Positions 38,301-41,300 of a DNA stretch of 64,000 nt are shown here, one piece after another. The notes beneath the pieces were generated by a model. The model was not told where the DNA came from. It ran no database searches and worked only from the letters and a program-made list of their open reading frames with translations. The position numbers and the translations under genes were made by a program. The stretch lies in the NCBI GenBank assembly GCA_964106915.2, contig OZ066914.1; one strand, written 5' to 3'. This DNA comes from Podarcis gaigeae (lineage: Eukaryota). Each line of letters starts with the position of its first letter. Position 1 is the first letter of the stretch.

Positions 38301-41300
38301 TTTACCTATAGAAAAGAGGAAGAGGAGTAAGTGGGTGTGTATGCCCCCCATCTGAAGAAATAAATTACCTTTTCTTTCTTTGATAAGAAGAATAGGACAT
38401 CTTCATAGATTTCAAGACGATCACGTTCTGATATTGCATTCCAGACTTCCATCTCTCCAAACATTTGTTCAGCTTTTCTGTATAGAAATAGGAAGAAAAA
38501 AGGCTCTATAAATCACTTTGCTCCCACTCTTTCACACTGATCAGTCAACATCCCAATCCTTGCCAAATGTTTGATAACCAAGAGAGTATAAAATGTGTAA
38601 TCATACGTAACTCGTGTTTAATATTACAAAATCATTCCAGCTTGCAAAGCTAAAATAAAAGAACTAATGTGTTAACAATTTAGATTTTTTAAAAAGTTCT
38701 ATGTGTTGTATTCCAGCTCCTGCCATTTCTTTTCTCCCATTGCTTGGATAAAAGGTTTTTGTATTTTTAAAACACACAGCAATGGATCCCTTCCTTGCTT
38801 GCATCCATTCCCAATACATTTTTTGCCAACAGTCTCAGTGACAACTTCTCACACACTGCAGTCTTTGTACAAATGCAGAGGCAACCATGGTTTGTATCTA
38901 GACTTTCAAATGGCTGCAGAGTCGGAGTTTCACTCAACAAAAAAAGGGGAAGGAACAGACTTCTGCCAAGTCCTCCTCCTCCATATAAATCTGCACCAGA
39001 CAGGAGGCATGGGCAGCAGAAGTAGAAATTGTAGAACACAACCTTGCAACAGTGAATTTGCACAAATTGTTATTCCCCATAGCACAGTATTTGAAACAGT
39101 GTTTTAAAGTGTTGTTTTTTAATTCACATTCCCCTCTTAAGTCAACCCAGGCTCAAGTTTTAAATTTAGAATTGTACAACTAGTATTATGCATTAGATTT
39201 ATCTTACTTGTATCTGGTAGTGGATGTCATCTTCTCGTGGTTCTCAAGGAAACGCTGAAAAGATTCTTTTGCCTCTTTGTATTTTAATCTTGCTTCTTCT
39301 TTTTCTTCTTTCTCTGTCTGGACCTTGTAAGCATTAAATGCTTGCTTCTTCTCACTTAGTTTTGCCAAAGCACTAAAAATTAAAGAAAAAAGCCATAAAT
39401 TTATTGATAAATGCAGTATCAACTGATCTTTTTACGAAGATTCCTTTTAACACTGCACACAGGGAGAGAGTTTCAAAGTACTTAGTACACAATTGCTTCC
39501 CCTCAAAACAATAACAACCCAGTTTTAAAAAAACTGTTCAGGAAAAAAGCAGGTTAAATTTGTTTATTTATTTAAAATATATACAAAACCTTTCTTTACA
39601 TGTTTCTCAAAGTGGCATATGAAGAAAAACATACAACTTGCACAATTTTAAAAAGATTAAAAATATCAGAAAATAGGAACATCAAGGCAGCATTCAAACC
39701 ATGAGCTCACTTGAGCTGTCAGAACATCAGTTTATACACACAACTACCGGTACTTAAAAGCATGTTGATTAAAAAGAAAATAGGAACAGCATACCTGTAT
39801 CTTGGATCGTTAATTATCATTTTCATAGCTTGCTCCCAAGAGGCGTTGGATGGCACACGCTATGAAGACATGAAGTAAATCATGTAAGTCCTCAAATCAG
39901 TACTTCTGTTTGTGCAACGGTAGCTTTAGGAATGCTAGCTAAGGTAAGAATGGATGCATCTAAATTGTGCAGTGGGGCATAGTTGTCAAATGTACTGATT
40001 CAGATTATTTGGTGGCAAAAGTGGGTAAATATTCTGCTTGGTATGTTTTTATTATAAAAATAAAAGAATATTTGTACAAAGGACTGTCACATTTCTTTGC
40101 TTTTCCTGTAAAAATGATAAACTACCATAAAACTAGGAAATGATAAATTTGGTACACAAGACACTTTCTATATTCATGAGTATTTTTAGCCTTCTCATAA
40201 TTTACTTACACTTCTAGAAATGGTGCATCAATCAGTTCGTACATGAAAGCAAACCATAGTTAACAGATTCAGGTAGGTAGCCGTGTTGGTCTGACGCAGT
40301 TGAAATATATTAAAAAATTGTCCAGTAGCACCTTAGAGACCAACTAAGTTTGTTCTTGGTATAAGCTTTCGTGTGCATGCACACTTCTTCAGATACACTG
40401 AAACAGAAGTACTATATATAAGTGTCTGGTGACTTCTGATTCAGTGTATCTGAAGAAGTGTGCATGCGCACGAAAGCTTGTATCAAGAACAAACTTAGTT
40501 GGTCTCTAAGGTATTACTGGACATTTTTTTGTTTGTTTACATAGTTATCAGATTACTGTTAACACACCTATCTGGCCTGCTTTGTTTCGTCCTATAGCAT
40601 ACAGAGGAAACAAACCACAATCTGATTGAAACATAGCACTAAGCCAGGGTTTGTCATTTGCTTTTCCCCTAGTGCTAGTAAAGAGAAGCAAAGCATGCAT
40701 GATTGGCTTGTATATGATTTAGCCTTTGTTTATGGCTTATCATGAGTGAATATGGCTAGTGTTGCATTCTTTATTTTCTAACTTTTTTTGATAGGGTGGT
40801 AAGCTAATAAAAACATAGGGCTTCGTCCTTTTGATTCTGCAGTGATGTTTCATTAGTAACATTTGGGATGTAATACTACTTAATAAAGCAACATCTGACT
40901 CTTCAGAGTGAGAATTTACAAAGAGTAAGTGGATACCGGTAATTGAAGTTTTTAAACACAACCGTTTTTCCTTCTCTTCATTCCGCCCCCCCCCCCCAAG
41001 GCCAATTCTGCAAATGTGGAACTGTTGTGCCACCAGAATGCTCTTCTCACATAAAAATTTCATTTGTCTTTCCTTCTTTGGTCCCACTGCCCCCCGCAAA
41101 AGACCTAAACAAATGTAAGAATTTTCCACCAATACTGGAGCATGATGTGAAAGTTTATACCAAGTGCATTTTGGCTAGAATATTTTTTCCATGTTTACTT
41201 CAGTATGAATGTTATTCCATAAAGTTTCTTTCAAAATCAGCAATTCTCCCAACTCAAGTATATTTGCAATTCTTGAAATTTTAAACAGTAGTTGACTCAA

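Follow-up and report, generated by a model that had tools for sequence, protein, structure and literature searches.

Introduction

The closest described systems to the locus reported here are insertions of Penelope-like retroelements (PLEs). Inverted head-to-head pLTRs are described in PMC3846280: their target-site duplications (TSDs) measure 8-10 bp, one of the pLTRs has a tail of 31 bp, TATATATA precedes an Inr-like TCACT by 20 bp, and palindromes occur where the inverted copies meet. For such junctions the study favours self-priming, with an antisense strand as template. According to PMC8557442, an inverted 5'-truncated copy with a one-sided tail of 30-40 bp is typical of PLEs.

Minimal hammerhead ribozymes (min-HHRs) have been reported in PLE pLTRs, including those of a turtle and of snakes, and pairs on opposite strands lie 100-700 bp apart in Schistosoma. 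Single min-HHRs gave no detectable cleavage, while multimers cleaved at a low level (PMC4209133). The HHR of an anole PLE cut only with the PLE protein. The protein of this anole Poseidon element cuts at 5'-ATT-3' and extends both strands, and reverse transcription begins at either of two positions, 111-118 nt inside the ORF, and uses uncleaved RNA (PMC11167929). Eight out of nine dimer elements of Xenopus failed to cut (bioRxiv 10.64898/2026.07.22.740005).

Double-stranded RNA from such repeats has also been documented. In lizard brain, the LINE that undergoes massive editing is Penelope, at more than 40,000 sites (PMC5625713), Penelope and Harbinger are the most edited repeats in X. tropicalis (PMC10636886), and siRNAs from inverted Penelope copies were found in flies (PMC3681739).

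The window, i.e. the whole stretch of 64,000 nt of Podarcis gaigeae DNA that was analysed, carries a palindromic insert in an intron of PRPF40A. This insert likely consists of two head-to-head pLTR ends of a Penelope-like retroelement, to judge from its sequence anatomy.

Results

The insert is bounded, as an earlier note on this DNA had stated, by direct repeats of 15 nt on the plus strand, at 40255..40269 and 40540..40554; they match at 14 of 15 positions. A match of this quality is rare by chance (1 of 2000 random window pairs at the same spacing). No empty site was seen among the contig matches listed for four public runs, so that we infer, rather than observe, that the repeats are the left and right TSD. 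The right repeat ends in AGATT. The final 5 nt of the left repeat (AGATT, 40265-40269) are common to the element end and the target: as copies of the family end at 40265, they count as both, and the unambiguous part of the left TSD is 10 nt.

Between the repeats lie two inverted arms of 99 nt each, 93% complementary and separated by 21 nt. The left arm (40312..40410, minus strand, the sense of the PRPF40A pre-mRNA) appears to be a 5'-truncated pLTR copy and the right arm (40432..40530, plus strand, antisense to the pre-mRNA) a second, tail-less copy. They differ at 7 of 99 sites, with a longest perfect run of 29 bp. The inverted arms had been recognised in the earlier note, but at 92 bp, which is their inner part. 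Four of the five transitions between the arms give A-C mismatches on the pre-mRNA strand; these were considered as a trace of editing and rejected, being indistinguishable from chance. The tail of the left copy (40265/40270-40311, minus strand) has no counterpart on the right copy and would reflect a distal start of reverse transcription. The A/T-rich end of the right copy reaches 40539.

The head-to-head junction (40410/40411) falls in a 6-nt palindrome, AGT/ACT, at 40408..40413. The unpaired 21 nt that follow (40411..40431, plus strand) had been called a spacer in the earlier note. They are element DNA, the upstream pLTR part of the plus-strand copy, and not a neutral loop, since other contigs run on from 40411 into common upstream sequence (agreement 0.73-0.81); the alignment of P0001, a spurious ORF from another assembly, crosses them as well. 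This TATA-containing sequence has TATATATA at 40413-40420 and, 20 bp further, an initiator-like TCAGT (40441..40445, plus strand), the predicted start of pLTR transcription, whose mirror on the left arm lies at about 40399. The plus-strand copy has an intact TATA-20 bp-Inr core (40413-40445), directed antisense to PRPF40A. There is no ORF in the insert.

This anatomy matches published PLE insertions and supports the Penelope-like pLTR origin and inverted layout proposed earlier. As in Pen2a_Av (PMC3846280, PMC8557442), two pLTRs, one of them shorter, stand inverted head to head with a tail on one side only, and the probable short TSD, the TATATATA-20 bp-Inr layout and the junction palindrome are alike. 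Three features of EN+ PLEs were found: the pLTR copies are 5'-truncated and inverted, the extension on the left alone corresponds to a 30-40-bp tail at one end only, and a hammerhead motif lies with TATA/Inr within the pLTR. Unlike EN+ PLEs, the insert has no ORF body, and both halves are truncations of about 130-145 nt. A linked RT/GIY-YIG ORF was sought by protein searches with two read-through peptides. No RT was recovered, a negative of little weight: the frame of the loop ATG gave three short proteins without RT and the other frame 0 of 4 candidates.

The host gene was identified by a PDB sequence search. The exons flanking the insert correspond to adjoining stretches of the FF domain of PRPF40A, residues 2-28 (E 3.6e-11) and 29-50 (E 2.3e-10) of PDB 1uzc, whereas a Pfam scan of the four exon-containing frames returned a WW domain in one frame only. 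The intron (39860..41309, minus strand, GT-AG, 1450 nt) thus separates two FF1-domain exons, and the insert lies about 410 nt from its acceptor and about 770 nt from its donor. In run X15, which is guessed to be RNA-type, a contig joins 39859 to 41310, a canonical splice joint. Together, the exon matches and this joint bear out the location in a PRPF40A intron. A literature search found no paper that joins PRPF40A, intron and hammerhead.

Elsewhere in the window, self-comparison revealed dispersed repeats of 80-89% identity (4690-4907 with 30342-30559, 3116-3218 with 22633-22735 and 4493-4583 with 16461-16553). Translations of 44000-44900 resemble what we take to be a Bov-B/RTE LINE fragment, and runs of N at 15227-15355 and 21251-21422 are assembly gaps or masked sequence.

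A hammerhead descriptor was built from the published minimal-hammerhead consensus (CUGANGA(H), a stem II starting G-C, GAAA, a palindromic NN, UH and stem I). It gave two matches in the 64-kb window, with core C3 at 40392 (minus strand) and 40450 (plus strand), against a mean of 0.01 matches, and never two, on 100 Markov controls. A hammerhead motif is therefore present on each strand, one per arm, in keeping with the earlier note, as are the stems it described. The minus-strand motif (40359..40396) conforms to the min-HHR consensus, also at the >80% level, as a minimal type-I hammerhead with every stem Watson-Crick: stem I GUAU/AUAC, core CUGAAGA plus A, stem II GUGUG/CACAC with a CAUG loop, and GAAA-GC-UU. 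Its cut would presumably fall between 40363 and 40362 by standard hammerhead numbering. The plus-strand motif (40446..40483) is degenerate, with three G-U wobbles.

Rfam hammerhead families gave no match at E <= 10, with the whole insert or with a single arm, so that the covariance-model check suggested earlier was negative, the canonical (Rfam) class was rejected and the hammerhead call rests on the published minimal-HHR consensus. With the insert, Rfam returned only sub-threshold miRNA hairpin matches, owing to the long stem, and with the single arm nothing. Exact and gapped scans for the motif gave 0 matches in viral contigs, 0 and then 1 in metagenome contigs and 1 in genome contigs; loci L001 and L002 were dropped as relatives, having nothing in common beyond the pattern and being attributed to chance.

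The nearest published likeness is the Chrysemys picta row in Fig. S3 of PMC4209133, which shares the CUGAAGAA core, the GUG start of stem II and GAAA-GC-UU; stems I and II differ from it by pair-keeping double changes, compared by eye. By comparison, the insert has a shorter loop II (CAUG), and its motifs are only about 50 nt apart. With this shorter loop, stem II (40371-40384) is a perfect 14-nt palindrome. A pair of motifs cofolds through stem II at -33.2 kcal/mol, versus -8.1 kcal/mol per monomer, and nucleation of an RNA dimer would thus be possible. Non-LTR retrozymes (bioRxiv 10.64898/2026.07.22.740005) are likewise non-autonomous and pLTR-derived with a type-I HHR. They are arranged head to tail with two HHRs on the same strand, whereas the insert is head to head with one per strand; membership of this group was rejected, as the whole window holds one hammerhead motif per strand.

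The minus strand of the insert folds at -151.1 kcal/mol (z = -21.6), and 0 of 200 shuffles were as stable. Forcing the hammerhead fold on the 270-nt pre-mRNA strand costs 54.7 kcal/mol of ensemble energy, and in an arm alone 2.2 (left) or 9.3 (decayed right) kcal/mol. The penalty in the palindrome supports the earlier proposal that the hairpin out-competes the hammerhead fold. In the minimum free energy structure (MFE) of the whole intron, 93 of the 99 bases of the left arm are paired to bases of the right. The antisense arm precedes the ribozyme arm in transcription. MFE structures computed for the lengthening chain, which represent equilibrium and not kinetics, show the duplex begun by 40390 with the core still incomplete.

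As each strand carries one motif, the pre-mRNA holds a single sense motif, and no transcript has the two copies needed; the sense motif lacks helix III and, to judge from the published work, would depend on a dimer partner or on PLE protein. Most likely, the ribozyme would be inactive even if the palindrome were absent. The further proposal of a self-cleaving motif in need of a built-in silencer found no support, given one sense motif per transcript and single min-HHRs that gave no cleavage. The supposed silencer is most readily understood as a side product of the way PLEs insert, not as a PRPF40A device.

The repeat family was surveyed in contigs of 4 out of 24 public runs (three DNA-type and one RNA-type, from organisms A, B, F and G), placed on 39750-41450. 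Between 8471 and 10514 contigs per DNA-type run matched this region. Summed depth in these three runs reached 1.2-1.5 million over the left arm, against 6-21 in the flanks, figures which are not a copy number. They point to a very high-copy family, which we would put in the order of 10^4-10^5. Among the best 15 of 93 contig joints, 14 link 40381-40402 to 40440-40446. Judged by their sequence, such joints are further head-to-head copies with other centres, each single joint being weak because its short side has under 30 letters. P0001 aligns to the antisense arm first and to the sense arm next, and so spans another head-to-head copy. As head-to-head copies recur across the genome and are a known by-product of PLEs, a special link to PRPF40A, as earlier implied, is not supported. 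The family is present in lacertid lizards, since P0003, a Podarcis muralis gene model (GINS2), starts with a translation of the repeat; this N-terminus probably results from faulty gene prediction or from exonisation of a copy. No family name for the repeat was found in the literature, including the accessible parts of PMC9498476 and PMC7561263, and supplements or Repbase/Dfam may list it.

Loose ends of family copies were compiled from the best 24 of 759 rows. Among these, 80-83 contigs per DNA run stop at 40265 and 41-59 at 40303-40312, which is 38-47 nt away, and on the other side 25-64 have 5' ends with unrelated flanks at 40396-40398; none ends at the predicted cut site. Ends at 40396-40398 coincide with the initiator mirror, immediately ahead of hammerhead stem I, and would fit promoter-started, uncleaved RNA templates. 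Such short copies could be cDNAs that are complete for roughly the first 130 nt of uncleaved element RNA. From the element end it is 114 nt to the loop-II ATG and 120 nt to the beginning of stem II, which resembles Poseidon of Anolis carolinensis (PAc), where the HHR lies about 110-120 nt before the start of reverse transcription. Two presumed start sites that set the tail and an ATT at the target are further likenesses to PAc.

At the locus itself, a left-flank contig enters the element tail by 25-29 nt in 4 of 4 runs, which is below the bridging bar of 31 letters, and the right junction is bridged in runs X3 and X4, with 46-47 nt of the right arm. The insert appears to be present in four related organisms whose flanks differ by about 3%. 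In organism G, the flanks show 13 differences in 462 letters and 27 in about 780; with the insert present there, it is likely older than that split.

Discussion

We consider it highly probable that the locus arose by neutral head-to-head insertion of a 5'-truncated, high-copy and likely PLE-derived pLTR, the hammerhead being trapped in a 99-bp hairpin in which it likely never cuts. The element endonuclease would have made staggered nicks, one per strand and some 10-15 bp from each other, in an AT-rich target whose last bases are AGATT, and each nick would have primed reverse transcription on element RNA, a distal start yielding the tailed left copy and a proximal start the tail-less right copy. 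The two cDNAs would then have been joined via a 3-nt ACT overlap. We infer that the data fit both two target-primed cDNAs and self-priming on an antisense template as in PMC3846280. During transcription, the antisense arm would be made first and the hairpin would zip as the ribozyme arm emerges from the pre-mRNA. The intron would be spliced out normally, with the duplex at most a substrate of promiscuous A-to-I editing.

Both the family and the right repeat end in AGATT, which gave target and template 5 nt in common. This single, post-hoc case is a hint of pairing-assisted or sequence-specific priming. PAc priming, unlike this, is reported to proceed without target homology (PMC11167929).

Among other explanations, an effect on PRPF40A through a cryptic exon or through an antisense transcript from the plus-strand TATA-Inr is very improbable, although the least so. 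The signals are there: TTTCAG/TG at 40398/40397 and AGT/GTAAGT at 40209 would delimit a 188-nt exon on the minus strand (40397-40210) with a strong donor-like site, and P0003 translates the repeat at its N-terminus. The acceptor-like site is, however, buried in the hairpin and was missed by the acceptor pattern used, of the 15 joints listed the canonical one alone is of splice type, and P0003 is an unverified prediction.

Very improbable, too, is a co-opted switch, in which the hairpin silences the sense hammerhead until unwinding by ADAR, a helicase or PLE protein frees it to cleave the PRPF40A intron. Its widest version holds self-locking ribozyme palindromes to exist genome-wide, with unwinding letting Penelope protein or a partner RNA cut this intron, and is given the same slender chance. 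It would account for a sense motif that is wholly Watson-Crick beside a decayed motif on the antisense strand, for an insert seemingly common to four organisms and for the protein-assisted HHR of the anole PLE (PMC11167929). Against it stand one sense motif per transcript, without helix III and under a penalty of 55 kcal/mol, a layout that recurs elsewhere, and the normal splicing seen. Editing would presumably strike core adenosines too. The intact sense motif, seemingly kept in four organisms, is allowed though not required by neutrality, as by a hand estimate an untouched 38-mer is expected in about 1 in 4 cases when each arm has decayed by about 3.5%. A milder offshoot is likelier than the switch: that AGATT shows the family to prime by target-template pairing, unlike the homology-free anole Poseidon.

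Equally far-fetched is a MITE-like DNA transposon, non-autonomous and bounded by long terminal inverted repeats, in which the hammerhead would be incidental. The insert is short, palindromic and high-copy with a direct repeat at both sides, yet its ends are asymmetric, with a tail on the left only, centres vary among copies, and many single-arm copies end at 40396-40398 in unrelated flanks; the 10-15-bp duplication and the TATA-Inr-HHR order fit PLE pLTRs. Membership of MITEs or DNA transposons was rejected on the absence of symmetric terminal inverted repeats and of a fixed centre. An assembly or fold-back artefact has a negligible chance of having made the palindrome, even though inverted PLE structures trouble short-read assemblies (PMC8557442) and none of the listed contigs spans the whole insert, given arms that differ at 7 sites, a right junction bridged in X3 and X4 and a tail entered from the left flank in 4 of 4 runs.

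Like the palindromic Harbinger repeats found in Xenopus and like Alu pairs in inverted orientation, which are ADAR substrates (PMC5625713), the insert is a self-contained, long, near-perfect intronic hairpin, and it would behave as they do if it were edited; its retroelement origin is a difference. ADAR editing of this hairpin is plausible by analogy, and the published editing of Penelope makes it likely, yet as behaviour known for the class. Differences of the A>G and T>C type in run X15 were rejected as editing, since they are inseparable from species divergence, the run being from another organism. Processing of a nuclear intron by Dicer is less likely.

As a single locus the insert is ordinary: the element is of a known type and exists in very many copies. 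Its importance would be much greater if the sense hammerhead did cleave the host pre-mRNA in vivo. It is a clean teaching case of the anatomy of PLE insertion, and the family to which it belongs could be used to test short target-template pairing (AGATT) in PLE priming, as well as palindromic copies as a source of the heavy Penelope editing in lizard brain.
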